Source: an uncultured Oscillospiraceae bacterium (GTDB taxonomy: Bacteria; Bacillota; Clostridia; Oscillospirales; Ruminococcaceae). Taken from it: a DNA stretch of 56,764 bases. The notes beneath the pieces were generated by a model that saw nothing but the letters and a program-made list of their open reading frames with translations, did not search any database and had not been told where the DNA came from. The stretch covers positions 1-56,764 of the forward strand of contig CAZDSQ010000001.1 of the NCBI GenBank assembly GCA_964508295.1, read 5' to 3'. Both the position numbers and the translations under genes were made by a program. Shown in pieces: positions 8,388 to 54,540 of the stretch (position 1 is its first letter; each line of letters opens with the position of its first letter).

Positions 8388-9854
8388 ATGAAAAATCATT
8401 ATGATGTTTTAGTTATCGGAACGGGTGCCGCGGGTCTTTACGGTGCGCTTCATATCTCTCCCGAGATGAGTGTTCTTTCTGTCTGTAAGGGTGAGATTTT
8501 GCTCAGTAACAGTGACCTTGCTCAAGGCGGTATTGCTGCAGTTACTCTTGATGAGGATAAATATGAGTACCACATCAAAGACACAATGATCGCGGGCGGT
8601 TATGCAAATAATCCTGATTCTGTTTATGAGCTTATTATCGAAGGTCCGAAGGATGTTATGAATCTTGCAAGGCTCGGTGTTGAGTTTGATAAAAATGAGG
8701 ACGGAAGCTATAATATGACCCTTGAGGGCGGACATTCGCTGCCCAGAATTCTTCACCGCAAGGATTCAACAGGTAATGCAATCGTTACAACGCTCTCACA
8801 GGTTGTATCTAAGCTTCCTAATGTTACGATTTCTGAAAACACTCAGGCTATAAAACTCGTTAAAGAGGGCGGAGTGTTCTTTGCAACTCTGCTTATCGGC
8901 GATGAACAAAGCGTTGTTTCTGCTGACTATGTTCTTATGGCAACTGGCGGAATAGGCAGAGTGTATGAGTATACAACCAATTCTAAGATTGCTACGGGGG
9001 ACGGAATAGTACTGGCGCATAAGATGGGCGCTGTTGTTGAGAATATGCATTTAATTCAGTTCCATCCTACCGCGTTTGCTCACGAGGATAGGGAAAGACT
9101 GCTTATTTCTGAGTCTGTAAGAGGCGAGGGTGCGTATCTACTTAACTGCAATTTTGAGCGCTTTATGCATAATTATGACGATCGTTGTGAGCTTGCTCCG
9201 CGTGATGTTGTTTCAAAGTGCATTATGCAGGAAGAAAAGAAAACCGGCAGCAATAAGTTTTATCTTAATATTTCGCACGAGGACCCCGAGTTTGTTATAG
9301 ACCGTTTCCCGATGCTTTACGAAAAGCTTAAGGCGGAGGGATTTGATATGACGCGCGATAACATTCCTGTTTATCCCTGCCAGCACTATCTTATGGGTGG
9401 AATACGTGTTGATCTTAATGGTCAGACCACCATCGAGGACCTTTATGCTGCGGGCGAATGTACCCACAGCGGTGTACACGGAAACAACCGCCTTGCAAGC
9501 AATTCGCTTCTTGAGGCTGTTGTTTTTGGCAGAATGGCTGCCCTTGAAATCAATAGGAAGTTTAAGGAAAACGGCAAAAAAGCATCTGTTTCTGAGCCTG
9601 CTGATATGATAGAAAAGTGTGGAAATACACCGCTTCCTCACGGCTACAGAACAAAGATAAGACATCTATTGCAAAAGGGCTTTTACGTTGTGCCTGATGT
9701 TGAGGCGGCTAAAAACTCTATAAATGAGGTTAAAGAAATCCAAAAGATTTTGGAAAATAAGGATTTTGTGATTTCAAGAGATCTTGTTGAAGCAAGAAAT
9801 ACTGCTATAATTGCCAACATTATTCTTAATGATGTAATAAATGCCAATTCTTAA
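8388..9854 (+). CDS. nadB: L-aspartate oxidase
   Basis: Start chosen at MKNHYDVLVIGTGAAGL (AGAGGA RBS). FAD motif, HPTA and GGIRVD motifs. Confidence 0.9.
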   Translation: MKNHYDVLVIGTGAAGLYGALHISPEMSVLSVCKGEILLSNSDLAQGGIAAVTLDEDKYEYHIKDTMIAGGYANNPDSVYELIIEGPKDVMNLARLGVEFDKNEDGSYNMTLEGGHSLPRILHRKDSTGNAIVTTLSQVVSKLPNVTISENTQAIKLVKEGGVFFATLLIGDEQSVVSADYVLMATGGIGRVYEYTTNSKIATGDGIVLAHKMGAVVENMHLIQFHPTAFAHEDRERLLISESVRGEGAYLLNCNFERFMHNYDDRCELAPRDVVSKCIMQEEKKTGSNKFYLNISHEDPEFVIDRFPMLYEKLKAEGFDMTRDNIPVYPCQHYLMGGIRVDLNGQTTIEDLYAAGECTHSGVHGNNRLASNSLLEAVVFGRMAALEINRKFKENGKKASVSEPADMIEKCGNTPLPHGYRTKIRHLLQKGFYVVPDVEAAKNSINEVKEIQKILENKDFVISRDLVEARNTAIIANIILNDVINANS

Positions 9855-9866
9855 AGGAGTTTTTAA

Positions 9867-10703
9867 ATGAAATTACCGCAGTTTTATGTTGACGACATTA
9901 TAAAAAGAGCAATTACTGAGGATATAAACTACCTTGATGCTACGACCGATTATCTTATTGATGAAAATGCAAAAACAACGGCATATTTTGTTTCAAAAGA
10001 CGAGGGTGTTCTTTGCGGAATTGAAATTGCTATGAGAGTTTTTGAGCTTCTTGATGATAAGGTTGAATATACTCTACATAAAAAAGACGGAGATGCTGTT
10101 TCAAAGGGTGATCTGATTGCTGAAATGAGCGGAAACACCGCGGCGCTTTTAAAAGGCGAGAGAACTGCATTAAATCTCCTGCAGCATATGTCTGGTATCG
10201 CTACCGCAACAAATCGCTGCGTAAAGCTTGTTGAGGGAACCGGCGCAGCCGTTGCCGAGACAAGAAAGACACTCCCTGGATTACGCGCTCTACAGAAATA
10301 TGCCGTAACAGTCGGCGGCGGAAAAAATCACCGCTACAATCTCAGCGATGCGGCTATGCTTAAGGATAATCATATTGATGCCTGCGGCTCTATCAAAAAC
10401 GCCGTTGCTGCTTTCCGCAGCAAGACTGGTCATATGATTAAAATTGAGGTCGAGGTCAGAGATTTTGACGAGCTTAACGAGGCCCTTGATGCTGGCGCTG
10501 ATGTTATTATGCTCGATAATATGAGCTGCGAGCAGATGACGCAGGCTGTTAAAATCGTTGCAGGCAGAGCTAAGACCGAAGCCTCGGGCAATATAACCCT
10601 TAATAATATTGCAGAGGTTGCTAAAACTGGTGTTGACGTTATAAGCCTTGGCGCTTTAACTCACTCGGTAAAAGCCTTTGACATCTCGATGAAAATTAAA
10701 TAA
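9867..10703 (+). CDS. nadC: Nicotinate-nucleotide diphosphorylase (carboxylating)
   Basis: 278 aa. GERTALNLLQHMSGIAT, TRKTLPGLR and IMLDNM motifs. Confidence 0.9.
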   Translation: MKLPQFYVDDIIKRAITEDINYLDATTDYLIDENAKTTAYFVSKDEGVLCGIEIAMRVFELLDDKVEYTLHKKDGDAVSKGDLIAEMSGNTAALLKGERTALNLLQHMSGIATATNRCVKLVEGTGAAVAETRKTLPGLRALQKYAVTVGGGKNHRYNLSDAAMLKDNHIDACGSIKNAVAAFRSKTGHMIKIEVEVRDFDELNEALDAGADVIMLDNMSCEQMTQAVKIVAGRAKTEASGNITLNNIAEVAKTGVDVISLGALTHSVKAFDISMKIK

Positions 10704-10740
10704 AACAAAAACCGATAGCATTTTGCTATCGGTTTAATTT

Positions 10741-11712
10741 TTATATGCCTTTTTTCTTTAAAATACGAATGTCGTTTCCGCAAAATCTTAAATGCTCGTA
10801 GCAACCGAGAAGCCTTGAAGCAATTCTGTCGCTATAGCGCTGGGAAATTTCAGAGGGGGTAAGGTTTGCAGTGATAATAGTTGGCTTTTCCTCTAAAATT
10901 CGTGTATTTACAATGTTATAGAGCGCTGAAATAGTAAACGAGGTTGTAAATTCAGCCCCCAAATCGTCAATTACGAGCAAATCACAGGATAATATATTTT
11001 CAATGCTTTGCTCAGGCCTTTCCTGATTAAAGCGTTGCTTTTCAAGCGAGGTGAAAAGGTCGGGAGCAGACATATAAACGACGTTAAAGTTTTTTTGCTG
11101 AACGGTTTTTGCAATGGCAAGGGAAATGTGTGTTTTTCCTATTCCTGTTCCGCCGAAAAGCAAGAGGTTGGGGGAGGAATGTGAAAACTCCTCAGAATAC
11201 TGCTTGCAGTTTTCAAAAATGCTCTGCATTATGTTGTGGCAGGGAATGTTACCGAGCGTTTCGGGGTAGTATTTTAAATCAAAGGTATCAAAGGGATTTG
11301 GCTCTCCTGAACAGATCTCTTTTTCTTTTTCGAGCGAGCCTATAACTTCAATCAAGCACTCGCAGGGCATAGCATCAACAAAGCCGGAATCGTTACACTT
11401 TTTGCATGCGTAGTTTATATCAAGAAAATCCTTTGAAAATCCGTTTTGCGAGAGCAGATCTTTTTTTCTTTCAATGAGTGCGTTGTTTCGCTCCTTGATT
11501 TTGTTAAGCGAGGTGGTAAAATCGCCTTTGTGACTTAAAACCTCTCTTGAAATCAAAGAGCCTGACAGGGAAAGCTCGCTGTCGATTTCTTTAAGCTCGG
11601 GGATCTTATCATAAGCTATTTTTTTGTTTTCTTCAAAAATTCTTATTGCAGATTTTCTGCGGCTGTTTACAATTTCACCCGCCTGCTTTAATAACTCTAT
11701 AGAATATTTCAT
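10741..11712 (-). CDS. DnaI/DnaC-like helicase-loader ATPase
   Basis: 323 aa. Cys-rich N-domain (CKKCNDSG...CEC), Walker A GGTGIGKTH, Walker B LLVIDDLGAE. Immediately downstream of a DnaD-domain gene. Confidence 0.75.
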   Translation of the reverse strand: MKYSIELLKQAGEIVNSRRKSAIRIFEENKKIAYDKIPELKEIDSELSLSGSLISREVLSHKGDFTTSLNKIKERNNALIERKKDLLSQNGFSKDFLDINYACKKCNDSGFVDAMPCECLIEVIGSLEKEKEICSGEPNPFDTFDLKYYPETLGNIPCHNIMQSIFENCKQYSEEFSHSSPNLLLFGGTGIGKTHISLAIAKTVQQKNFNVVYMSAPDLFTSLEKQRFNQERPEQSIENILSCDLLVIDDLGAEFTTSFTISALYNIVNTRILEEKPTIITANLTPSEISQRYSDRIASRLLGCYEHLRFCGNDIRILKKKGI

Positions 11713-13126: not shown

Positions 13127-13178
13127 TCTTTTCACAGCTCATATATTTGTATAAAAAATGTGGGCAAAGGTGATCATA

Positions 13179-13799
13179 ATGAAAAGAATTATAAGGACAA
13201 GCGCTCTCAAAAACGGTTTATTTTCTCATAACCGTTTTTTTATTTCTGTCTTTTGGCTCGTTGGCATCGGAATTTTGCTTGGTACAGCCGCGGCAGGTAT
13301 GTTCTCGGGCGATGATAATTCCTTTGTAAATAACGTCTGGCAGACTTATTTTTTAAAACGTGAAACGGGGAGTATTTTTTCCTGCTTTGTAGGTACAATT
13401 TCTTCCTCAATAATGGTTTTGCTGTTATTCTATTTACTTGGCCTTTGCGCTATAGGATCGCCGTTTTTGTACTTAACTCTTGTTTTTGACTCTGTTGGAA
13501 AAGGCCTTGTTTTCGGCTTTTTATATCTTCAATATGGATTTTGGGGTATTTTAAAATCCTTTGTATTTTTGCTCCCTCAAAATGTTCTTATCTGTCTTTT
13601 GTTTATCTATGCAGTTAACTTTTCGGTTAAAATGTCAAGGCAGATGCGCTGTCTTTTGTCTGATAACAACATGACAGTGGATTACCACCTTAATTTTAAG
13701 AAGTACAATCAAAAGTATTTATTTTTTGGCTTTTGTTTAGTTTTAATCAGCGTATTTGATGCCATTATGTCACGATTTACGTATTTGATTATAAAATAA
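13179..13799 (+). CDS. spoIIM: Stage II sporulation protein M-like membrane protein
   Basis: About 206 aa with 5-6 TM segments. The FLLPQNVLICLLFIYAVNFSVKMSRQ segment parallels the B. subtilis SpoIIM FPQN region. Start taken at MKRIIR with an AAGGTGA RBS. Confidence 0.6.
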   Translation: MKRIIRTSALKNGLFSHNRFFISVFWLVGIGILLGTAAAGMFSGDDNSFVNNVWQTYFLKRETGSIFSCFVGTISSSIMVLLLFYLLGLCAIGSPFLYLTLVFDSVGKGLVFGFLYLQYGFWGILKSFVFLLPQNVLICLLFIYAVNFSVKMSRQMRCLLSDNNMTVDYHLNFKKYNQKYLFFGFCLVLISVFDAIMSRFTYLIIK

Positions 13800-13823: not shown

Positions 13824-14714
13824 ATGTTCGATATGCTCCAAGAATATAAAGTGTATCTGAAAGACAAGCTTTGCGTTTCAAAGAGCACCTACGATGCTTA
13901 TGTCCGGGACGTTTCGTCGTTCCTGAGCTATGTAGACATTTCCGTTTCCCACGATATCCGCGATGTCAGAGAAAATGATCTTGAGGGCTTTAAAAAAGCT
14001 CTTGAAATGCGTGGAAAAACACCCGCAACTGTAAACCGCAGTTTTGCATCGGTCAAGAGCTTTTACAGATTTTTGCGTGTTGCAGGAATTCAGAGCTATG
14101 ACCCTACTGAGAAATTCCACGCCGTAAAGCAAGAAAAAAAGCTCCCCACAATTCTTTCCGGAAAAGAAGTGGACAAGCTTTTAAGAATTCCGGATGTAAA
14201 TACTCCCAAGGGCTGTAGAGATAAGGCTATGCTTGAGCTTCTGTATGCAACGGGAATGAGAGTTTCCGAGCTTATTGATTTAAATCTTGACGATATTCAG
14301 TTGGGCAGAAGTATTGTTTCTTGCCGAAGCGGAAATGTGATAAGGAGTATTCCTATTTATTCCGCGGCAAAAAATGCGATCAAAGATTATCTTTTAAGGG
14401 TTTATCCTTATTATTCTCAAAATGATAATAACGCTCTTTTTATAAATATGAACGGTACAAGGCTTACAAGACAAGGCTTTTGGAAAATAGTTAAGCATTA
14501 TGCCGATGAACTTGGTCTAAAGGTTGAAATAACCCCACACACACTTCGCCATTCGTTTGCGGCGCATCTTATTGAAAACGGAGCAAGCGTTGAGGATGTT
14601 AAGGAAATGCTTGGACATGCAGATATTTCATCAACACAAATTTATGCACAAATTGTAAATAATCGGTTTAAAGATACATACAACCGTTGCCATCCGCGCG
14701 CAAAAAGTGTATAA
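13824..14714 (+). CDS. xerD: Tyrosine site-specific recombinase XerD/XerC family
   Basis: 296 aa. N-terminal SAM-like domain and catalytic region ATGMRVSEL...HTLRHSFAAHL...LGHADISSTQIY. Confidence 0.85.
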   Translation: MFDMLQEYKVYLKDKLCVSKSTYDAYVRDVSSFLSYVDISVSHDIRDVRENDLEGFKKALEMRGKTPATVNRSFASVKSFYRFLRVAGIQSYDPTEKFHAVKQEKKLPTILSGKEVDKLLRIPDVNTPKGCRDKAMLELLYATGMRVSELIDLNLDDIQLGRSIVSCRSGNVIRSIPIYSAAKNAIKDYLLRVYPYYSQNDNNALFINMNGTRLTRQGFWKIVKHYADELGLKVEITPHTLRHSFAAHLIENGASVEDVKEMLGHADISSTQIYAQIVNNRFKDTYNRCHPRAKSV

Positions 14715-43002: not shown

Positions 43003-43962
43003 ATGCGATCAATCGGTGTTTTAACAAGCGGAGGAGATGCTCCCGGTATGAACGCTGCCGTTCGTTCGGTTGTGCGCTGTGCTCTCGCTGAGGGATTTAA
43101 GGTTTATGGTATTTATGATGGTTATAACGGTCTTATCAATGGCAAAATTGAAGAGATGTCCGTTAATAGTGTTTCTAATATTATAAATAAGGGCGGTACA
43201 GCTATTTATACCGCAAGATGCCTTGAGTTTAAGGATCAGGAAGGCGTTTTAAAGGGAAAAGAAACCTGCGAAAAGCTTGGCATTGAAGGTCTTGTTGTTA
43301 TTGGAGGAGATGGATCTTTCCGTGGTGCAGCTGATCTTTCGTCAGCCGGCATTAACTGCGTAGGTATCCCCGGAACTATTGATAATGATATTACCTGTAC
43401 CGATTATACAATTGGTTACGACACAGCAATGAACACCGTTGTTGATTTAATTGATAAGCTTCGCGACACCTGTAACTCTCACGCTCGTTGCAGCGTTGTT
43501 GAGGTTATGGGCAGAAGATGCGGCGACCTTGCTCTTAATGCAGGTCTTGCGGGCGGTGCAACAGCTATAGTTGTTCCTGAAATTCCTTTTGATTTTGAAA
43601 AGGATATTCTTGCAAAGGTTGTTGACGCTAAAAACAGAGGCAAGCACAACTTCATCGTTGTTGTTGCTGAGGGAATCGGTGGCTCTGCTGAAATTGCAAA
43701 GAAGATCGAGGAAGCTACCGGAATTGAAACCCGTGCCGCTATCTTAGCACACATTCAGCGTGGTGGCGCTCCTTCCGCAAAGGACAGAATCATTGCTTCA
43801 AGAATGGGTAAATATGCTGTTGACCTCTTAAAGAATGGAATCGGTAACAGAGTTGTTGCTATGAAGGGTAACGAAATTGTTGACTATAATATCCACGAGG
43901 CTCTTAAAATGAAAAAGAGCATCGATCAGGAGCTCTTTAAGCTGGCAGATTTAATTAAATAA
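43003..43962 (+). CDS. pfkA: ATP-dependent 6-phosphofructokinase
   Basis: 319 aa. GVLTSGGDAPGMNAA, GGDGS and PGTIDND motifs. Confidence 0.92.
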   Translation: MRSIGVLTSGGDAPGMNAAVRSVVRCALAEGFKVYGIYDGYNGLINGKIEEMSVNSVSNIINKGGTAIYTARCLEFKDQEGVLKGKETCEKLGIEGLVVIGGDGSFRGAADLSSAGINCVGIPGTIDNDITCTDYTIGYDTAMNTVVDLIDKLRDTCNSHARCSVVEVMGRRCGDLALNAGLAGGATAIVVPEIPFDFEKDILAKVVDAKNRGKHNFIVVVAEGIGGSAEIAKKIEEATGIETRAAILAHIQRGGAPSAKDRIIASRMGKYAVDLLKNGIGNRVVAMKGNEIVDYNIHEALKMKKSIDQELFKLADLIK

Positions 43963-43966
43963 AACC

Positions 43967-44003
43967 AGAACCCTATGTAATTTGTTACATAGGGTTCTTT
44001 TTT
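43967..44003. terminator. Bidirectional terminator at the convergence of pfkA and the FAD-protein gene
   Basis: 14-bp perfect stem AGAACCCTATGTAA/TTACATAGGGTTCT with a 4-nt loop, a T-run downstream and an A-run upstream. Confidence 0.75.
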
Positions 44004-45595
44004 TATATAGGTTTATATTTTTCGATCAGAGCAAGCGCAACTTTAATGCCGTCAACTGCAGCGCTCATGATTCCGCCTGCATATCCCGCGCCTTCACCGC
44101 ATGGGTAAAGTCCACTTACAGACACAGACTCCAGATTTTCTCCACGCAGAATTCTGACTGGAGATGATGTTCTTGTTTCGATGCCGGTTAAAATAGCGTC
44201 ATTTGCATCAAAACCGCGTATTTTTCGCCCAAAATCATTTAAACCGAATTTCATCATATCTGAAATTTCAGAGGGGAAAATAGCGTTAAAATTGCATTCT
44301 TTTACACCGAGCGAGTAGGTGGGCTCAACTCTGCCTATATTAAGCTCGGCTTTGTTGTTAAGAAAAGCACCAATATTTTGAGCGGGGGCAGAGTAGTTAC
44401 TGCCTCCTGCAACAAATGCGGCTTTTTCGTATTTTCTCTGGAAGTTGATTGCATCCATAGGATTTTCGCCGAAATCCTTTCCCGAAACCGAAACAACAAG
44501 CGCGCTGTTTGCATTTTTGCCGTCTCTCGCGAAAACACTCATTCCATTTGTAACAACAGTTCCTGCTTCGGAGGACGACGGCACAACAGTTCCGCCTGGG
44601 CACATACAAAAGGTGTAAACAGCTCTATCATTTTTTCTGAGCGAAAGCTGATATTCACCCTTTGAAAGAAGCGGATGACCTGCGTATTTTCCGTATAAAC
44701 CAAAATTTATGTCGTCCTGCAGATGCTCAATTCTGACGCCAATTGAAAATGGCTTTGTTTGCATTATAATATCCTTGCTAAGTAGCATTTCAAAGGTATC
44801 TCTGGCACTGTGCCCGATAGCTAAAACAAGAGTAGAGCAGGGAATAGGCGAGTTATTTATGAAAATTCGCTCAATTTTGCCGTTTTTGACCGCTAAATCA
44901 GTTAACTGAGAATGATTTAAAACCTCGCCGCCGAGCAAAATAATCTCGGTTTTGATTGATTTAACGACCTCTCTCAAATAATCCGTTCCAATATGCGGCT
45001 TTGCCTTTTTAAGAATCTCAGACGGTGCGCCAAAACGAACAAGTTCATTTAAAACAAAATCACAAAGAGGATCATTGATTCGGGTGGTAAGTTTACCATC
45101 AGAAAAAGTTCCTGCGCCGCCTTCACCAAACTGAACATTGCTTTGGGTATCAAGCTTACCGGTTTCCCAGAACAGAGAAACATCCTTTACGCGCTTATCT
45201 ACTTCTGCACCGCGTTCGATAATAATCGGTCGATAGCCGTATCTTGCTAATACCAAGCCAGCAAACATTCCGGCGGGTCCAAAGCCAACAATTACAGGTC
45301 TGTTTTTTAATTCGGTTTTTCCGCAAGTGGCTTTTGGAAGTGATGATGTAATATTTCTAAAAGTTATTTTTGAGTTGTTGAGCTTTTTAACAAGAGTTTT
45401 CTCGTCTTTTTCAGTTACAAAACCAACAGATGAAACAAGCTGAGGTTGTTTCCTGTGTCTTGCATCTATTGATGTTTTAAGTACAAAGCAATCTAATATA
45501 TCATTATTAGACAACGAAACAAGCTTTGTTGCTTTTTCTATTGACAAGTTAGGATTATCATTAAGGTTTGTTATAATATCAGAAACAACAATCAA
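44003..45595 (-). CDS. FAD-dependent protein (COG2509-like uncharacterised dehydrogenase)
   Basis: 530 aa. Dinucleotide-binding motif VIVGFGPAGMFAG and C-terminal CGEGAGYAGGI. Confidence 0.7.
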   Translation of the reverse strand: MIVVSDIITNLNDNPNLSIEKATKLVSLSNNDILDCFVLKTSIDARHRKQPQLVSSVGFVTEKDEKTLVKKLNNSKITFRNITSSLPKATCGKTELKNRPVIVGFGPAGMFAGLVLARYGYRPIIIERGAEVDKRVKDVSLFWETGKLDTQSNVQFGEGGAGTFSDGKLTTRINDPLCDFVLNELVRFGAPSEILKKAKPHIGTDYLREVVKSIKTEIILLGGEVLNHSQLTDLAVKNGKIERIFINNSPIPCSTLVLAIGHSARDTFEMLLSKDIIMQTKPFSIGVRIEHLQDDINFGLYGKYAGHPLLSKGEYQLSLRKNDRAVYTFCMCPGGTVVPSSSEAGTVVTNGMSVFARDGKNANSALVVSVSGKDFGENPMDAINFQRKYEKAAFVAGGSNYSAPAQNIGAFLNNKAELNIGRVEPTYSLGVKECNFNAIFPSEISDMMKFGLNDFGRKIRGFDANDAILTGIETRTSSPVRILRGENLESVSVSGLYPCGEGAGYAGGIMSAAVDGIKVALALIEKYKPI

Positions 45596-49440: not shown

Positions 49441-49758
49441 ATGAGCTATTTTGCCAATGTTTCGGCACTTATTGCTTCCCCGAGTTATACAAAATATTTA
49501 TTTTGTCTATGTATTTCTGCTGTTCCCTATGTCCTCTCAGACCGAAAGCGTATGCGCAAGAATATGGAACGTTTAAAGGGATATTTCTACGCTATGCTGC
49601 TTGAATATGACCATTGGTCTGATTCAGCTCGGCAAGAGTTTCTCGATGAAGCTCGATTGCGGTTTGAATCGCAAAAGAAATATAATTTTTTCCGTGATGA
49701 GCTTGTCGATACTGTTAAAGGTTATGAGCCTGGTTATCAGCCTTTAACAGTTGCTTAA
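49441..49758 (+). CDS. Junction ORF: short host-derived 5' end fused at attL to what appears to be the displaced 3' end of the prophage rep gene
   Basis: The att core is read in the same codon phase (L-F-C-L) here and at the 3' end of rep. The frame stays open for 82 codons beyond the core. Confidence 0.5.
   Translation: MSYFANVSALIASPSYTKYLFCLCISAVPYVLSDRKRMRKNMERLKGYFYAMLLEYDHWSDSARQEFLDEARLRFESQKKYNFFRDELVDTVKGYEPGYQPLTVA
49489..49510 (+). repeat. attL core (direct repeat)
   Basis: ACAAAAT-ATTTATTTTGTCTAT. The 15-mer ATTTATTTTGTCTAT (49496-49510) is identical to 54463-54477. Confidence 0.8.
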
Positions 49759-49768
49759 GGTGATTAGT

Positions 49769-49939
49769 ATGAAAAAATCACTTCATCCGATCCACCCTTT
49801 TTTCCGTTGTGTAGATTCAGCTATTTTCTTTGATTTCGTAGAGTATGTTTTGCGCAATTTTAAGTGCGAGCTTTTTCAGCTTCCCCAGGATGAACAACTT
49901 TATTTATTTTCGAGATTTAGGCTATTGGAGTATATGTGA
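49769..49939 (+). CDS. Prophage hypothetical protein (56 aa)
   Basis: ATG preceded by an AAGGTGA RBS. Same strand and tightly packed. No recognisable motif. Confidence 0.4.
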   Translation: MKKSLHPIHPFFRCVDSAIFFDFVEYVLRNFKCELFQLPQDEQLYLFSRFRLLEYM

Positions 49940-49984
49940 TTATGCAATGTAATGATATTTAATTATTTTAAGGAGTGTAATTTT

Positions 49985-50266
49985 ATGATTAAATGTACAA
50001 TTGAAGGTCTTTTTGTAGGTAGTTCTCAGATGGCTAATAGAAATGGCAGCGGCACCACTACTGTCGCAGATATCTACGTTATTAAGCTTAAGAAATCTTT
50101 TCAGATTTTCCGTTATGAACAGCAGCACCAGGACGGTACCGTTGTTTCAATCCCTTGTGAGCTTCGTTTCCGTCAGGATGGCTCTCCTTATTTTGTTTAT
50201 TTAGCTCCTTCTGAAGCGCTGCAGAACGAAGCTGATAAAAATAACTCTGTAAAGGAGAATAAATGA
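49985..50266 (+). CDS. Prophage small protein in the gV position (candidate ssDNA-binding protein)
   Basis: 93 aa with a strong AAGGAG RBS. Beta-rich composition. Size and position immediately upstream of the coat genes match inovirus gV. No sequence motif was recognised. Confidence 0.35.
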   Translation: MIKCTIEGLFVGSSQMANRNGSGTTTVADIYVIKLKKSFQIFRYEQQHQDGTVVSIPCELRFRQDGSPYFVYLAPSEALQNEADKNNSVKENK

Positions 50267-50451
50267 TGGACGGTGTTACTATGTCTACAATACTCACCAG
50301 TATTGGTGCTGTTTTTACCCAGGTTGTTACTTGGGCTGGTGATGTCCTCGGTCTGATAGCTTCAAATCCCATCCTCCTGCTTCTTTGTGTTGCTCTTGTG
50401 ATTGTCGGTTTTGTTGTTGGCTGGGTCTCTCGCCTATTCCGTACAAATTAA
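50263..50451 (+). CDS. Coat-like single-TM peptide, paralogue 1
   Basis: 62 aa (56 aa if it starts at 50281). Amphipathic N-terminus, a 20-residue hydrophobic core LLLLCVALVIVGFVVGWV, and a basic tail SRLFRTN. Confidence 0.5.
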   Translation: MMDGVTMSTILTSIGAVFTQVVTWAGDVLGLIASNPILLLLCVALVIVGFVVGWVSRLFRTN

Positions 50452-50464
50452 GGAGGTCTGATTT

Positions 50465-50635
50465 ATGGATACTATTCTCAGTAATATCGGTTTAGTTTTT
50501 ACCCAGGTTATCGCCTGGGCAGGAGATGTCCTCGAGCTTATTGCAACAGAGCCTATTCTTTTACTTATGTGCGTTGCACTTGTAATCGTTGGATTTGTTG
50601 TCGGCTGGGTCTCTCGCCTATTCCGTACTAACTAA
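50465..50635 (+). CDS. Coat-like single-TM peptide, paralogue 2 (below the ORF-track size cutoff)
   Basis: 56 aa: MDTILSNIGLVFTQVIAWAGDVLELIATEPILLLMCVALVIVGFVVGWVSRLFRTN. AAGGAGG RBS 8 nt upstream. 46 of 56 residues are identical to paralogue 1. Confidence 0.5.
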   Translation: MDTILSNIGLVFTQVIAWAGDVLELIATEPILLLMCVALVIVGFVVGWVSRLFRTN

Positions 50636-50640
50636 AGCTT

Positions 50641-50670
50641 AAAGCCCTCGCTCTGAGCGGGGGCTTTATT
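50641..50670 (+). terminator. Strong rho-independent terminator directly after the coat-like gene pair
   Basis: 11-bp GC-rich stem AAAGCCCTCGC/GCGGGGGCTTT with a 5-nt loop and a TTTATT tail. Confidence 0.75.
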
Positions 50671-50686
50671 CAAATAAGGTGATTTT

Positions 50687-51673
50687 ATGAAAAAGAAAAT
50701 TATATGCCTTGTTTCTTCAGTTCTTTTATCTGTATTCCTTTTTTGTATGCCGACTTTTGCATACTCTCAGCTTTTTACAAATTACTTTAATTTGAATTAT
50801 ATTTCATTAGGTTCTTTGCCTGCTTCTGACTACTATAATATTGTTAATCAGGAAGCTGGACAGATGGATGTTAAAACTTCTGACGGTAGTGATTTTGCCG
50901 AGTTTAGCTATATTGATATCTATTTTAGCTATTTCGGTACAACTATCAATGCTGGTGATCGCTTTGTAGGTTCTTTTTATTTCGTTGTATCAGACTATGC
51001 CTCAAATGGCAAAAATCCGAATAGTCCGCCCGCTACTTCAAGTATTCAAGCTCAAATTAATGGCGGTAGCTCTACTGTAATTGGAAAAGTTACTTTAGTA
51101 GCTCATTCTTATGATACTTCTATAAACTCAAATTTATATCGTTTTAAGGTTGATTTTGACTGTTATTTCAAAGAAACTGTTGAGCGTATGCAATGTTCAA
51201 TTCGCGTAAACTTTAATGGTTTTACCCCTCAGACTTCTCATATGATTTCAGCACAATTTCTTGAGATCTATAATTTTTATTTAGGTGCTGCCGATGCTCC
51301 TGAAGCTCCGAAGTATAGTGACCCTTACGATTCTTATGGGTCTGATCTTGATTCAACCGTGGATGGGATAGATAATTATACAGATGAGGAACAGGAAATT
51401 CTTGATAAAACCGAGTCTGGCAGAAATGAAGCTTTGCAGCTTTTCAATAATTTGACCGATACCGTTGGTCAGATTTCTCATACTCTTTTGGCCGTAACTT
51501 ATGGTTTGAATTACTTTATCGGTTCAAGTGCTTTGCTTCATTCGATTTTGTATATTTCTCTTGCTCTCGGTTTTGTGCTATTTATTTTCAATGCAGTCCC
51601 CTCTTTATCTCATTCCCGTTCTCGTTCAGAACCCAGGAATACTAATTCTGGTAAGAAAGGTGATGGTGGTTAA
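50687..51673 (+). CDS. Prophage secreted protein with a C-terminal membrane anchor (pIII-like minor coat / adsorption protein candidate)
   Basis: 328 aa. Signal peptide MKKKIICLVSSVLLSVFLFCMPTFAYS, an acidic linker, and a C-terminal TM LLHSILYISLALGFVLFIFNAV followed by a basic tail. Confidence 0.5.
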   Translation: MKKKIICLVSSVLLSVFLFCMPTFAYSQLFTNYFNLNYISLGSLPASDYYNIVNQEAGQMDVKTSDGSDFAEFSYIDIYFSYFGTTINAGDRFVGSFYFVVSDYASNGKNPNSPPATSSIQAQINGGSSTVIGKVTLVAHSYDTSINSNLYRFKVDFDCYFKETVERMQCSIRVNFNGFTPQTSHMISAQFLEIYNFYLGAADAPEAPKYSDPYDSYGSDLDSTVDGIDNYTDEEQEILDKTESGRNEALQLFNNLTDTVGQISHTLLAVTYGLNYFIGSSALLHSILYISLALGFVLFIFNAVPSLSHSRSRSEPRNTNSGKKGDGG

Positions 51674-51906
51674 TGCTTAATTTCTTTGATATGTTGGCTG
51701 AATGTTTTGACTTAATTCTTGCCTTTTTTACTACTATTGCAACTCTGATAACTAATTTCTTATCTGGACTTGTTACTGCTTTTAGAATCTTAACTGACGT
51801 TGTTACCATTCCCGTTATTTTTACTGCTTTTGTTCCTGGTATTATTTCATCTGCAATTTTTATCTTTGTTGCTCTGGGTGTCATAAAGTTTATTATAGGA
51901 CGGTGA
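51673..51906 (+). CDS. Prophage hydrophobic protein (77 aa, pVI-position)
   Basis: TAATG overlap with the upstream gene. Two to three TM segments. Confidence 0.45.
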   Translation: MLNFFDMLAECFDLILAFFTTIATLITNFLSGLVTAFRILTDVVTIPVIFTAFVPGIISSAIFIFVALGVIKFIIGR

Positions 51907-51910
51907 GATT

Positions 51911-52096
51911 ATGGGAAATATTACTGGTTGCTTTACTCTTATAGTTGATTTTTTCTGGGATTTTGTTACTCTCCTGGATTCAAAAGTAAGGTTTGATTTC
52001 TTTGGAGCTCTTTCGATTTCTATAGTTGATATTTTTGTCGGTTTTATTATTTTAGGATTTGTTATATCTGTATTTTGGAGAGGTGCAAAAGCATGA
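51911..52096 (+). CDS. Prophage hydrophobic protein (61 aa)
   Basis: Two predicted TM segments. Its stop overlaps the next start (ATGA). Confidence 0.45.
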   Translation: MGNITGCFTLIVDFFWDFVTLLDSKVRFDFFGALSISIVDIFVGFIILGFVISVFWRGAKA

Positions 52097-52212
52097 TTAT
52101 TTTATCTTGTTTACCATTTATTCTTGAAGGCTTTACTTACGTATCGGGTGTTTTTTTACTGTCTTATGTTTTTGGAATCGTATTTAAACTATTCGGAGGT
52201 GCTCGCCGATGA
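52093..52212 (+). CDS. Prophage micro-ORF (39 aa, hydrophobic), not in the ORF track
   Basis: MIILSCLPFILEGFTYVSGVFLLSYVFGIVFKLFGGARR. ATGA overlaps at both ends. Confidence 0.35.
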   Translation: MIILSCLPFILEGFTYVSGVFLLSYVFGIVFKLFGGARR

Positions 52213-52286
52213 GCTTGCAGGTAATTCTTTTAATGGCTATATTTATGGTTTTATGTATTTTTGTTTTTGGTGGAGGTGTTAATTGA
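52209..52286 (+). CDS. Prophage micro-ORF (25 aa, hydrophobic), not in the ORF track
   Basis: MSLQVILLMAIFMVLCIFVFGGGVN. It bridges the neighbouring ORFs exactly through overlapping stop/start codons. Confidence 0.25.
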   Translation: MSLQVILLMAIFMVLCIFVFGGGVN

Positions 52287-52480
52287 TGCAAACAATTCTT
52301 GATGCCCTTAGAGCTGTTCTTGGTGAGCCTGATTTTTATAAACAGCTTACAAGTAGCAGTAACTATACCTGGGACTATGCTGCAATGATTGAATATATGG
52401 TTGGTGCTCTTATCCTCTGTATCGTTGTTTCATCCGTTTTCCGCATAGTCGCTCTTCTTTTCAAAAGAGGTAAAAACTGA
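52286..52480 (+). CDS. Prophage small membrane protein (64 aa)
   Basis: GGTGGAGGTG RBS. Soluble N-terminus, one C-terminal TM and a basic tail KRGKN. TGATG overlap with the ATPase gene. Confidence 0.45.
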   Translation: MQTILDALRAVLGEPDFYKQLTSSSNYTWDYAAMIEYMVGALILCIVVSSVFRIVALLFKRGKN

Positions 52481-53241
52481 TGATTAGAGTATTTTTCGGT
52501 AATATCGGATGCGGCAAGACTACCCTGGCAGCACGTCAGTTTTATAAGTGCCTTCGACGTGATCAGCGAGACGTTAATAGAAAACGTACACCACTTTATG
52601 ACTATTACATTTCAAATTTTGAATGTGAGCTTGCGCAGTTCTGCCGCCTTGCCGATCTCGGACGTTGGACTTTCCCTGAACATTCGTATATCATTATCGA
52701 CGAAGCTGGCATTGAGTATAATAACCGTAAGTTTAAATCTCTCCCACAAGAAACGATTGCTTGGCTTAAGCTTAGCCGACACTACAAATGCGACGTTGAT
52801 TTTCTCTCTCAGAGCTGGGATGATATGGATATTACGATTCGCCGCCTGGCATCAGAGCTGTGGTATGTACGTAAGCTCGGACCTTTCACAATGCTTCGCC
52901 GAATATATAAACGAGTAGGCATTGACTCAGAAACCCACCAAATTTGCGATTTTTACGAGTTTGGCAAAATACTGCCTTGTATACTTCCCCCACCTTTTAG
53001 GCAGCATAACATCGAAATTTTCCTGCGAAAACCCTATTATAAATACTTCGACAGTTATACTAAACCCGAAACCCCCGTCTTTCCTTTCTCAGAGCTTAAA
53101 GCAAAAGCTGTTCCTTTTCCGAAGCAGCTGCTTACCTGGATAAAAGGAATTGGGCCGCGCGCCCTTAGCGCAGTTACCAGATTGCAGCTTAAAGAGAAGC
53201 TTGCCCTGGTCCTCGACCGCCTGCGCTGCAGGAAACAGTAA
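52480..53241 (+). CDS. Zot/pI-like P-loop ATPase (filamentous phage assembly protein)
   Basis: 253 aa. Walker A GNIGCGKT, Walker B YIIIDEAG, and the Zot-family block LSRHYKCDVDFLSQSWDDMD. Confidence 0.75.
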   Translation: MIRVFFGNIGCGKTTLAARQFYKCLRRDQRDVNRKRTPLYDYYISNFECELAQFCRLADLGRWTFPEHSYIIIDEAGIEYNNRKFKSLPQETIAWLKLSRHYKCDVDFLSQSWDDMDITIRRLASELWYVRKLGPFTMLRRIYKRVGIDSETHQICDFYEFGKILPCILPPPFRQHNIEIFLRKPYYKYFDSYTKPETPVFPFSELKAKAVPFPKQLLTWIKGIGPRALSAVTRLQLKEKLALVLDRLRCRKQ

Positions 53242-53268
53242 ATTCTCCTGCCTTTTGTTACCAAAAAA

Positions 53269-53314
53269 AGACAAACAAAACCCGCCAAACATATTGGCGG
53301 GTTTTAGTTTGTCT
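53269..53314 (+). other. Long near-perfect hairpin (terminator and/or packaging-signal / origin candidate)
   Basis: 20-bp stem (AGACAAAC+AAAACCCGCCAA pairing with TTGGCGGGTTTT+GTTTGTCT) with a single A bulge and a 5-nt loop, 28 nt after the ATPase stop. Confidence 0.6.
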
Positions 53315-53344
53315 GACGCCCCAAAACCCCGAGGGGTATCACGG

Positions 53345-53396
53345 GGTTAAAATTCCTCATATAATCCTTGGGTTAAAATTCCTCATATAATCCTTG
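53345..53396 (+). repeat. Perfect 26-nt tandem duplication GGTTAAAATTCCTCATATAATCCTTG x2
   Basis: Copies at 53345-53370 and 53371-53396 are identical. The second copy runs into the -35 box of the rep promoter. Confidence 0.9.
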
Positions 53397-53422
53397 ACAA
53401 ATGCAAAATTATGCCTTAAAAT
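53394..53422 (+). promoter_or_regulatory. Consensus sigma-A promoter upstream of rep
   Basis: TTGACA (53394-53399), 17-nt spacer, TAAAAT (53417-53422). Confidence 0.65.
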
Positions 53423-53429
53423 GAAAATA

Positions 53430-53497
53430 CCGGATGCGCAGCATCCGTCTAAACATCCGGTACCGGTCGCTGAGGGGCAGTTCCCTTACTGCCCCCT
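53430..53497 (+). other. Cluster of GC-rich hairpins in the rep leader (origin / nick-site candidates)
   Basis: CGGATGC-GCA-GCATCCG (53431-53447). Palindrome CCGGTACCGG (53457-53466). GGGGCAG-TTCCCTTA-CTGCCCC (53474-53495). Confidence 0.5.
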
Positions 53498-53516
53498 GCA
53501 AACTTTAAGGGAGTGA

Positions 53517-54485
53517 ATGACTATGACACAAGAATTTTTCGAGAAAAATTACAAATTCGGAATGGACTGGTTGAACGGTGTTCTACCACTTACTGAGGTT
53601 GACGAGGTTTTTGATATGCTCGAATCCTTTTCGTCTAAGCTTAAGAAAGATCGTTGGAAGCTTATGTCGAAGGGTAAGTATAACTATCAAGTCCGTTATT
53701 GCCTTGATGATAAAGGTTTTATTCAGCTTATGTATAATACTGATTATTATGATGCTGACGGGAATCCTGGACTTACTGCATTAAATCCCGATGAATCAAA
53801 TAACCCCTATATTTTCTTTTCTATTTCGGGTGATGGTATCAGATACCTTGCTTCTATCGGTGGCGAAATGACCGCTTTAAATAAGCTTTTATGCTATTTT
53901 TATGCAAATGGTTTCAAAGCTACTCGTTTTGATGTCTACTGCGATATTCTTGATAAAAGAAATGAAATCGTTCCTCTTCTGAAGAAGTCTTTTGATTATT
54001 TTATTCATCCAAGAGTTAGTTATCCTACTTTAACTACTGGTTTTCATCGCGATCGTAAAAATATTCAAATCCGTTATTCTTATGATGATGATGGCAAGAG
54101 ATTCTATAATCTGCAGTTAGGTCATCATGGCTCTTTATTCGGTATGTTCCGTTGCTATAATAAGCTTATTGAGGTGCAGGATGGCAGACTTGCAGGCTTT
54201 TCATCCGAGATTTTAAAGCAATACGGTGTATCTGATTATTGGTATAGGTTAGAGTATGAGATACACGAACATGCTGCAGCTTGTTTTAATGCTGCTATGC
54301 AGGAGAGCTGCGAAAACAATCAGCTTTCTGTTCGGAGTATTTTTTGTGTTGCTGCAGAAAAAATGTTTTCTCCTGTTACTGTTAAAGGTTTAGGTATGAA
54401 GCTTGCTGATTCAGATAAGTGTGTTATATGGCTTGATTTTCTCAGCTTCGTTCGACAAAATGATTTATTTTGTCTATTTATGTAG
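53517..54485 (+). CDS. Rep_trans-type rolling-circle replication initiator (apparently C-terminally truncated by integration)
   Basis: 322 aa. FGMDWLNGV, TRFDVYCDI, FRCYNKLIE and WYRLEYEI match my recollection of the PF02486 family blocks (RstA/RepC-like). The last 3 codons plus the stop lie beyond the att core. Confidence 0.75.
   Translation: MTMTQEFFEKNYKFGMDWLNGVLPLTEVDEVFDMLESFSSKLKKDRWKLMSKGKYNYQVRYCLDDKGFIQLMYNTDYYDADGNPGLTALNPDESNNPYIFFSISGDGIRYLASIGGEMTALNKLLCYFYANGFKATRFDVYCDILDKRNEIVPLLKKSFDYFIHPRVSYPTLTTGFHRDRKNIQIRYSYDDDGKRFYNLQLGHHGSLFGMFRCYNKLIEVQDGRLAGFSSEILKQYGVSDYWYRLEYEIHEHAAACFNAAMQESCENNQLSVRSIFCVAAEKMFSPVTVKGLGMKLADSDKCVIWLDFLSFVRQNDLFCLFM
54455..54477 (+). repeat. attR core (direct repeat)
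   Basis: ACAAAATGATTTATTTTGTCTAT, differing from attL by one inserted G. Confidence 0.8.
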
Positions 54486-54510: not shown

Positions 54511-54540
54511 TAAAAACATCCCGATTTTTATCTCGGGATG
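54511..54540 (-). terminator. galT terminator
   Basis: 8-bp stem CATCCCGA/TCGGGATG with an 8-nt loop. A T-run on the minus strand, 10 nt after the galT stop. Confidence 0.7.

Follow-up and report, generated by a model that had tools for sequence, protein, structure and literature searches.

How can a filamentous phage of about 5 kb enter a bacterial chromosome when it appears to encode no integrase, and what becomes of its replication gene when it does so? The question is raised by the contig CAZDSQ010000001.1 (positions 1 to 56,764) of the GenBank assembly GCA_964508295.1, from an uncultured Oscillospiraceae bacterium, of which the whole 56,764-bp stretch is referred to here as the window. 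Near its right end lies an inovirus-like (filamentous) prophage of 4,967 bp, and a preliminary description of this DNA had placed the attachment core inside the phage replication initiator gene, rep, so that integration truncates Rep and excision would rebuild it. We propose, with a probability of roughly 0.8, that the element is an inovirus of the IMEX type (an integrative mobile element that exploits Xer), which lacks an integrase, carries its phage attachment site (attP) inside rep and uses a dif-like host site.

The 15-mer ATTTATTTTGTCTAT occurs exactly twice in the window, at 49496-49510 and 54463-54477, both times on the + strand (0.01 expected by chance; two or more matches in 0 of 100 shuffles). 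When the upstream ACAAAAT is included, the repeat is identical at 22 of 23 positions, the right copy having one extra G; the repeat is thus as first described and far above chance. The boundaries of the prophage are ambiguous within this 15-bp core. In both open reading frames (ORFs) the 15-mer begins at codon position 2, with the right copy translated as D-L-F-C-L-F-M-stop and the left copy as Y-L-F-C-L-C-I-S, which bears out the claim of a common codon phase. Joining 53517-54477 to 49511-49758 in silico gave the predicted stop-free ORF of 1209 nt and 402 aa. The start of rep is likelier to be the second ATG, at 53523, than the ATG at 53517, because GGGAG lies 9 nt upstream and because both P0002, the database's call for the window Rep (320 aa), and P0001, its closest full-length homologue, begin with MTQEFF. 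The split Rep therefore probably has 320 aa, and the rebuilt one 400 aa. In the prophage it does end within host DNA, the final TTT ATG TAG being host-derived. The 3’ piece of rep is likewise displaced to the opposite end of the element, as had been described, but the 105-aa chimeric ORF 49441-49758 in which it was said to lie was rejected as a conserved feature. The host ATG at 49441 is unique to the window; the corresponding host DNA of the four other integrated loci examined (L001, L005, L006 and L007) has no start in that frame, and the ATG is probably incidental.

A protein search with the fused Rep yielded 88 homologue clusters, all of which were aligned. Full-length proteins of ~400 aa make up 64 clusters, none of them on a contig longer than 6,712 bp (median 4.8 kb); the remaining 24 clusters are short, ending without exception at the alignment column of window residue 320-324. 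Twenty-two of these 24 end in [L/F]V, and the 24 include contigs as long as 72, 77, 93 and 176 kb. Among the 88 clusters no homologue ends elsewhere, and no free genome was found with a stop codon between the two Rep parts. Homologues from phage-sized contigs therefore do not stop near residue 320, which the preliminary description had named as the outcome that would speak against it; they run to ~400 aa in 64 of 64 clusters. Overall identity of the fused protein to P0001 is 85%, and the product of 49511-49758 aligns with the conserved C-terminal region (VPY...KYN..RDE) of the full-length homologues, so that residues 321-402 do correspond to a conserved C-terminal domain. Natural contigs also cross the circular junction as predicted: L012 (82% nucleotide identity) and L010 align uninterrupted through it, and L010 holds ACAAAATGATTTATTTTGTCTATGT, which equals the reconstructed attP, identical over 25 nt with the extra G included. 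The two phage-sized contigs that were checked for circularity, L011 and L013, are circular, of ~5.04 kb (30-nt terminal overlaps), with rep intact. Integrated relatives have the split arrangement. L001, an Oscillospiraceae metagenome-assembled genome (MAG), the NCBI genome assemblies L005 and L006, and a fourth relative, L007, have terminal repeats of 12-15 bp with the Rep C-terminal piece at the left end, and excision in silico restored an open Rep ORF of 395-421 aa in each. The contrast of 64 full-length with 24 truncated clusters, together with the junction-spanning contigs, supports the interpretation that integration truncates Rep and that excision would rebuild it. Separate production of the C-terminal piece from an internal start, by analogy with gene X of Ff, was considered and dropped, there being no conserved Met or start codon at that place across the Rep family.

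An AlphaFold model of the rebuilt Rep, built on 65 sequences (predicted local distance difference test score, pLDDT, 91.4; predicted template modelling score, pTM, 0.88), has three parts: residues 1-314 fold as an alpha/beta domain, 315-330 are coil (block pLDDT 67-69) and 331-388 form four helices. The only significant PDB matches found by Foldseek were chains of 4CIJ, which is RepBst, a rolling-circle initiator of the Rep_trans family (E = 2.9e-15, probability 1.00, target-normalised TM-score 0.70), in an alignment that spans ~316 columns against a target chain of 267 residues. Foldseek with the whole model gave no credible match to the C-terminal domain. The window Rep has no Pfam match at E <= 0.1; PF02486 is matched by 18 of 25 aligned Rep members (best E = 1.5e-10), and homologues that bear it, such as P0009 and P0017, are 49-50% identical to the window Rep. 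Assignment to Rep_trans is thus made through the homologues and the predicted fold. The motif R212-x-Y214-N215-K216-x-x-E219 is invariant in the 65 sequences, and we take Y214 to be the counterpart of the RepC/RepD active-site tyrosine. In the model, the crossover (residues 316-320) falls in the interdomain linker, and the prophage Rep is predicted to retain the whole catalytic fold and to lose a phage-specific helical domain.

The bacterial attachment site (attB) and attP were reconstructed from five loci, namely the window, L001, L005, L006 and L007. The attB sites fit, exactly or nearly, a 28-bp 11-6-11 palindrome, ATTATACWAAA-N6-TTTWGTATAAT, with a conserved CCCC run on one flank. The fit is exact in L006 and L007, which have perfect 12-bp arms and a 6-bp centre, while the window, L001 and L005 deviate in one arm. 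In the window the reconstructed attP junction reads GACAAAATGATTTATTTTGTCTAT joined to GTATTTCTGC, and the reconstructed empty attB reads TATACAAAATATTTATTTTGTCTAT joined to TTATGTAG. What each attP retains of the site is the right arm with 3-6 nt of the centre next to it, its left arm being degenerate, and an intact attP was seen in four free genomes. At the left junction (attL) the left arm and centre come from the host and the right arm is common to host and phage. This is the sole full match to the 11-6-11 motif in the window, and the host would therefore keep a usable site. The hybrid right junction (attR) has no match to the motif within 2 mismatches. Read in the frame of Rep, the right arm is GTA-TAA in most hosts, which is why truncated Reps end in ...LV or ...FV, and the phage copies have GTA-CAA, GTA-GAA or GTA-TAT at the same position and so avoid the stop. 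The frame of the window differs, with the stop two codons later than the host GTA-TAA elsewhere. The sites and other features are listed in Table 1.

Table 1. Features of the prophage, its attachment sites and the candidate host recombinase, with positions in the window
Feature	Position	Strand	Description and basis
Inovirus-like prophage	49511..54477	+	4,967 bp; direct repeats, Zot/pI matches, gene order of free genomes
attL	49484..49511	.	Complete 28-bp dif-like site: GTTATACAAAA / TATTTA / TTTTGTCTATG; core 49496-49510
attR	54450..54478	.	Hybrid: degenerate phage left arm GTTCGACAAAA, 7-nt centre TGATTTA (extra G), host right arm TTTTGTCTATT; core 54463-54477
attB of the window (reconstructed)			Left arm GTTATACAAAA, centre TATTTA, right arm TTTTGTCTATT
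attB of L006 (reconstructed)			Left arm ATTATACAAAA, centre TGAATA, right arm TTTTGTATAAT
attB of L007 (reconstructed)			Left arm ATTATACTAAA, centre CATTCA, right arm TTTAGTATAAT
rep’, truncated Rep	53523..54485	+	320 aa (322 aa from 53517); whole predicted Rep_trans-fold catalytic domain, last codons in host DNA
Displaced rep 3’ part	49511..49758	+	Linker end and predicted four-helix C-terminal domain, residues 321-402; homologue alignment, model helices 331-388
Host-derived 5’ extension of the 105-aa chimeric ORF	49441..49510	+	Probably incidental
Zot/pI-like morphogenesis ATPase	52480..53241	+	Inovirus hallmark; PF05707 E = 6e-8, above cut-off; phrog_197 E = 1.5e-14
Terminator-like hairpin after zot	53277..53305	+	Sequence differs in each relative
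Conserved AACCCCGRGGGGTATCACGGGGTTAAA element	53324..53356	+	Candidate double-strand replication origin (dso); conserved in window, L001, L010, L011; apart from att
Best promoter-like site upstream of rep	53394..53422	+	TTGACA-17-TAAAAT; 11/12 consensus matches, top scan match
Host xerD-like gene	13824..14714	+	Tyrosine recombinase, candidate integration enzyme; TIGR02225 302.8 bits (cut-off 329.6), NF001399 281.2 bits (cut-off 279)

No integrase or transposase was found by Pfam and PHROGs among about nine ORFs of the element plus the rebuilt Rep, the remaining short ORFs being too small for such an enzyme, and likewise none among the called genes of L005-L008. A tRNA-type attachment site was rejected, the window having no tRNA or tmRNA genes. 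The enzyme most probably comes from the host. A host xerD-like gene with spoIIM in front of it lies ~60-125 bp from the prophage in L002, L005 and L006; the products score best against XerD, with 302-316 bits to TIGR02225 (just under the cut-off) and NF001399 passed. The XerD-like protein of the window is 45-46% identical to the xer gene products abutting the prophages in L005 and L006, and its gene likewise follows spoIIM (13158-13799). That filamentous phages integrate at dif by way of Xer is well established (PMC5357621, PMC4246890), and the IMEXs of Vibrio have a 17-bp ‘right-armed’ dif-like attP (PMC12715192), the form that attP takes here. The element has several traits of an IMEX: no recombinase of its own, an attP that mimics one arm and the centre of the dif-like site, a 28-bp 11-6-11 attB and a usable dif-like site regenerated at one junction.

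The motif with perfect arms was present in at least 120 metagenome contigs (L014-L133), once in each, including contigs of 0.4-1.5 Mb. These contigs come from gut, rumen and fermenter, and GGGGA/TCCCC usually stands on one flank. Of the 120 contigs listed, 52 have a tyrosine-recombinase gene near the motif, ~50-700 bp off in 49, and those recombinases examined are XerC-like proteins of 329-352 aa. No Rep was detected in the motif-bearing stretches of the same 120 contigs. The perfect-armed site may be the dif, or the xer-dif module, of a large group of Clostridia. One full site was likewise seen in the 56.8-kb window; these counts cover stretches of chromosome of up to 1.5 Mb. Cumulative GC skew in the window climbs to its peak at 44,031 and declines beyond it, which suggests that the window spans the replication terminus. 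The attachment site is 5.5 kb away, within the distances at which predicted dif sites have been reported from skew shift-points (PMC3025954). For L001 and L005-L007 the flanks (1.6-8 kb) are too short for GC skew to be informative. The spoIIM-xerD-like pair stands 30 kb to the left of the switch in gene orientation at window 44000.

In L001, a related phage occupies the orthologous host locus, with flanks that are 75-78% identical to those of the window and inverted relative to the phage, and it uses the opposite arm of the palindrome. Beside it, at the same dif-like site, stands an unrelated 2.5-kb element in tandem copies; such stacking at one site is typical of IMEX arrays. The unit of 2,544 bp is present twice in tandem (L001:9076-14163), with a scaffold gap at 9066-9075 that is flanked by a duplicated 127 nt. 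It encodes a 208-aa tyrosine recombinase (9407-10033, - strand) and a Rep of the REP_ORF2-G2P type (10015-10806, - strand), and its junction has AAACCCATATTTTGTATA in common with the phage attP. It looks like a small integrative rolling-circle element.

Several points weigh against an Xer-exploiting inovirus. The xerD-like gene of the window is 35 kb from the attachment site and not adjacent to it, and Xer catalysis at the site, though most probable, is argued from sequence. Gene orientation changes from + to - near 44000 (43,003-45,595), coinciding with the switch in GC skew, and the 2.3 kb of right flank available limits the skew argument. The centre of the window attP has 7 nt and that of attB 6 nt. 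No empty attB of this species turned up when metagenome contigs were scanned for the exact pattern, and the orthologous locus in L001 is occupied too. The inner arm bases of the site are AAAA/TTTT, against ATAA/TTAT in the textbook dif of Firmicutes, and the name of ‘the’ dif is therefore one that we infer for it. Finally, promoter-like matches in the element are no more numerous than in shuffles, so that the idea of one operon, described below, rests on one strong and conserved consensus match.

Among other explanations, the one that survives best, although we consider it unlikely, is one-way integration, in which the prophage is never excised and phage genomes are made by replication from the prophage or from tandem copies with the truncated Rep. 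CTXphi prophages yield phage in this way, by replication only, and a truncated Rep that keeps the whole Rep_trans fold would be compatible with it, as would an attL centre of 6 nt facing an attR centre of 7 nt, a difference that could block the reverse reaction. However, none of the 64 full-length clusters is on a contig above 6.7 kb, so that free genomes consistently have the complete gene, and the prophage has a single origin-like element; in-place rolling-circle replication would therefore lack a second origin for termination. The attachment sites are, moreover, ordinary double-stranded ‘right-armed’ sites in direct repeat, of the type reported to be excisable for XacF1 (PMC5666396).

We regard as improbable that a different tyrosine recombinase acts in trans, for instance from a co-resident element as in L001, in which case the site would be an attachment site of mobile elements and not dif. 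The 208-aa recombinase of the L001 element, which sits at the same site, lends this some weight, and so do the recombinases next to the motif in metagenome contigs, which fall below the NCBIfam XerC cut-off (218 vs 335 bits). Yet no such element lies beside the prophage in the window, L005, L006 or L007, the site is single on contigs of up to 1.5 Mb, where it stands by conserved xerC-like or xerD-like (spoIIM-linked) genes of the chromosome, and in the window it is near the GC-skew maximum.

It is very improbable that Rep itself integrates the phage, with the palindrome GACAAAAT-GATTT-ATTTTGTC at the attachment site serving as the Rep nick site that is joined to a similar hairpin in the host. 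An 8-bp hairpin can form in the attP core, Rep has a predicted Rep_trans fold, the origins of the pT181 family lie inside rep (repC), and relaxases and HUH Reps are able to catalyse site-specific integration. But the host target is a recombinase-type 11-6-11 site beside xer genes, present in many contigs without a detected Rep; phages whose Reps are ~50% identical use differing cores that track the site of their own host; the zot-rep intergenic region has a conserved candidate origin of its own; and in L001 the same site is used by an unrelated element with a tyrosine-recombinase gene. That there is no split at all, with Rep naturally of ~320 aa, 49511-49758 an independent phage gene and the in-frame repeat a coincidence, is scarcely credible, for although plasmid Rep_trans proteins such as RepBst (~268 aa) lack the C-terminal domain and short ORFs are called at the left ends of L006 and L007 in gene annotation, a single ORF comprises both parts in all clusters from phage-sized contigs, the short versions all end at one column, in host DNA, and the head of the C-terminal piece has no conserved start codon or internal Met.

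Under Xer-dependent integration, the ~5-kb phage would enter the chromosome through site-specific recombination at the 28-bp 11-6-11 dif-like site, most probably catalysed by the host Xer tyrosine recombinase(s), as an IMEX. Its attP copies the centre and right arm of that site, written into the rep frame at the predicted flexible interdomain linker. In the integrated state, Rep stops just inside host DNA, without its C-terminal domain but with the whole predicted catalytic fold, and an essentially intact host site is left at attL. The C-terminal piece, with all downstream genes, lies at the far end, away from the strong promoter-like site. Recombination of attL with attR would give a circular genome and restore the 400-aa Rep.

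The zot-rep intergenic region has a conserved layout of terminator hairpin, candidate origin, promoter-like site and structured leader, and the circular genome therefore looks like one transcription unit that would begin with rep. The AACCCCGRGGGGTATCACGGGGTTAAA element is conserved in the four closest genomes although these are ~69% identical overall, and as a candidate origin it is preferred to the attachment site. The -35 hexamer of the promoter-like site is conserved in relatives. Just upstream of that site, at window 53343-53395, GGGTTAAAATTCCTCATATAATCCTT is duplicated in tandem; it is single in L001, L010 and L011. The 5’ leader of rep (53430-53500) has conserved paired segments, CGGATGCGCAGCATCCG, CCGGTACCGG and GGGGCAG...CTGCCCC, common to L001 and in part to L010, and may be a structured regulatory leader or a single-strand origin. 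Beyond the right end of the prophage lies the galT terminator hairpin, at 54517-54540, which in the integrated state would stop transcripts from the rep promoter, and the host genes to the left point away from the prophage genes. The split could thereby silence the prophage with no need of a repressor, and could bar rolling-circle replication from initiating within the chromosome. It is a tentative idea, and one we hold to be possible rather than probable, that lysogeny here needs no repressor because Xer recombination at dif acts as an on/off switch: the putative operon, which would run from rep to zot, would be split on integration, parting the promoter and the Rep catalytic domain from the C-terminal domain and the virion and assembly genes, and would be rejoined on excision.

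All ORFs of the 4,967-bp element are on the + strand, and their order is that of the free genomes L010 and L011, circularly permuted, which accords with the inovirus order of rep, small proteins, coat, adsorption protein and pI. Apart from the Zot/pI-like ATPase, the genes include rep at the right end and one whose 328-aa product has a signal peptide and a C-terminal anchor. When about nine ORFs and the rebuilt Rep were compared with Pfam and PHROGs, Zot alone was matched, and no recognizable repressor was found among the element’s genes. A paralogous pair of ORFs of 62 and 56 aa (50263-50635) has a hydrophobic core and an identical basic tail, VSRLFRTN. L001 has a matching coat-like pair, ~70% identical across 172 nt. 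These coat-like proteins of 56-62 aa have no family match in Pfam or PHROGs, and their genes are likely duplicated major-coat-protein genes. No relative of Rep was found in IMG/VR viral contigs, and no tblastn match to Rep among 50,697 GenBank phage records. In the host, the left flank encodes a Se/S-carrier-like protein, a cysteine desulfurase and a CdaA-like cyclase, and the right flank galT. A distant relative of Rep (37% identity) lies at L003:10481-12397, in a contig of another Oscillospiraceae MAG, with two tyrosine-recombinase-like stretches ~3.5-5 kb downstream; the L003 lineage may use its own integrase rather than Xer.

In its lack of an integrase and its dif-like attP of one arm plus centre, the element resembles CTXphi, VGJphi and TLCphi of Vibrio and Cf1c and XacF1 of Xanthomonas, with which it also shares a single palindromic 28-bp host site, the regeneration of a usable site and the stacking of elements (in L001). 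It differs from them in that the hosts are gut and rumen Clostridia (Oscillospiraceae and Acutalibacteraceae MAGs) and not proteobacteria, Rep is predicted to have the Rep_trans fold, the site differs in sequence from classical dif, attP lies inside rep, and the use of Xer is here inferred. As in XerS/difSL and XerH/difH (PMC5357621), the 28-bp site has near-perfect inverted arms and is often within a few hundred bp of an xer-like gene; unlike in those systems, the neighboring recombinases resemble XerC/XerD in size (296-352 aa) and type, and the site has a 6-bp centre. In XacF1, attP lies inside ORF12, a putative regulator that is split by integration at dif (PMC5666396). There, too, the attachment site is in a coding region, with the two gene pieces at opposite ends of the prophage, and the recombinase is the host Xer; the gene split in XacF1 is a putative regulator or immunity determinant, whereas here it is the replication initiator, cut between two domains.

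Mx8, with its intP, and fuselloviruses such as SSV1 carry attP inside their own integrase gene, which integration rewrites or partitions and excision restores. The split gene in those cases is the recombinase; here it is the replicase, with a recombinase probably supplied by the host. Residues 1-314 of Rep have a predicted fold that matches 4CIJ, and RxYNKxxE and YRLEYExH are invariant in the family, which likens it to RepC of pT181, RepD of pC221 and RepBst. Against these Rep_trans initiators, the window Rep is too diverged in sequence for a Pfam match, has an added linker and a helical domain of ~80 aa, and belongs to a filamentous phage, not a plasmid. In the literature, with incomplete coverage, precedents for attP inside an ORF were found only for regulators (XacF1) and none for attP inside rep, and no use of Xer by inoviruses of Gram-positive gut bacteria was found. 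An Enterocloster study and a large inovirus survey mention only ‘direct repeats’.

The anatomy of this prophage is well supported, and the switch is plausible but unproven. For annotation, the split carries a warning: in such elements, prophage predictors and gene callers will list a ‘short Rep’ at one end and a spurious small ORF at the other, and about a quarter of the Rep database clusters (24 of 88) are truncations of this kind. The finding would extend Xer-exploiting filamentous phages, documented mainly in proteobacteria, to uncultured Clostridia of gut and rumen, and provides a candidate dif-like site for these bacteria. The design is compact, in that an attachment site encoded in the predicted interdomain linker of the replication initiator gives the integrated and free states different Reps. 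Should replication require the C-terminal domain, or should the operon be silenced by the split, this would explain the lysogeny of a 5-kb phage that has no integrase and no recognizable repressor. Were the switch to operate, the state of a host chromosome-maintenance site would directly gate the replication and production of the phage.

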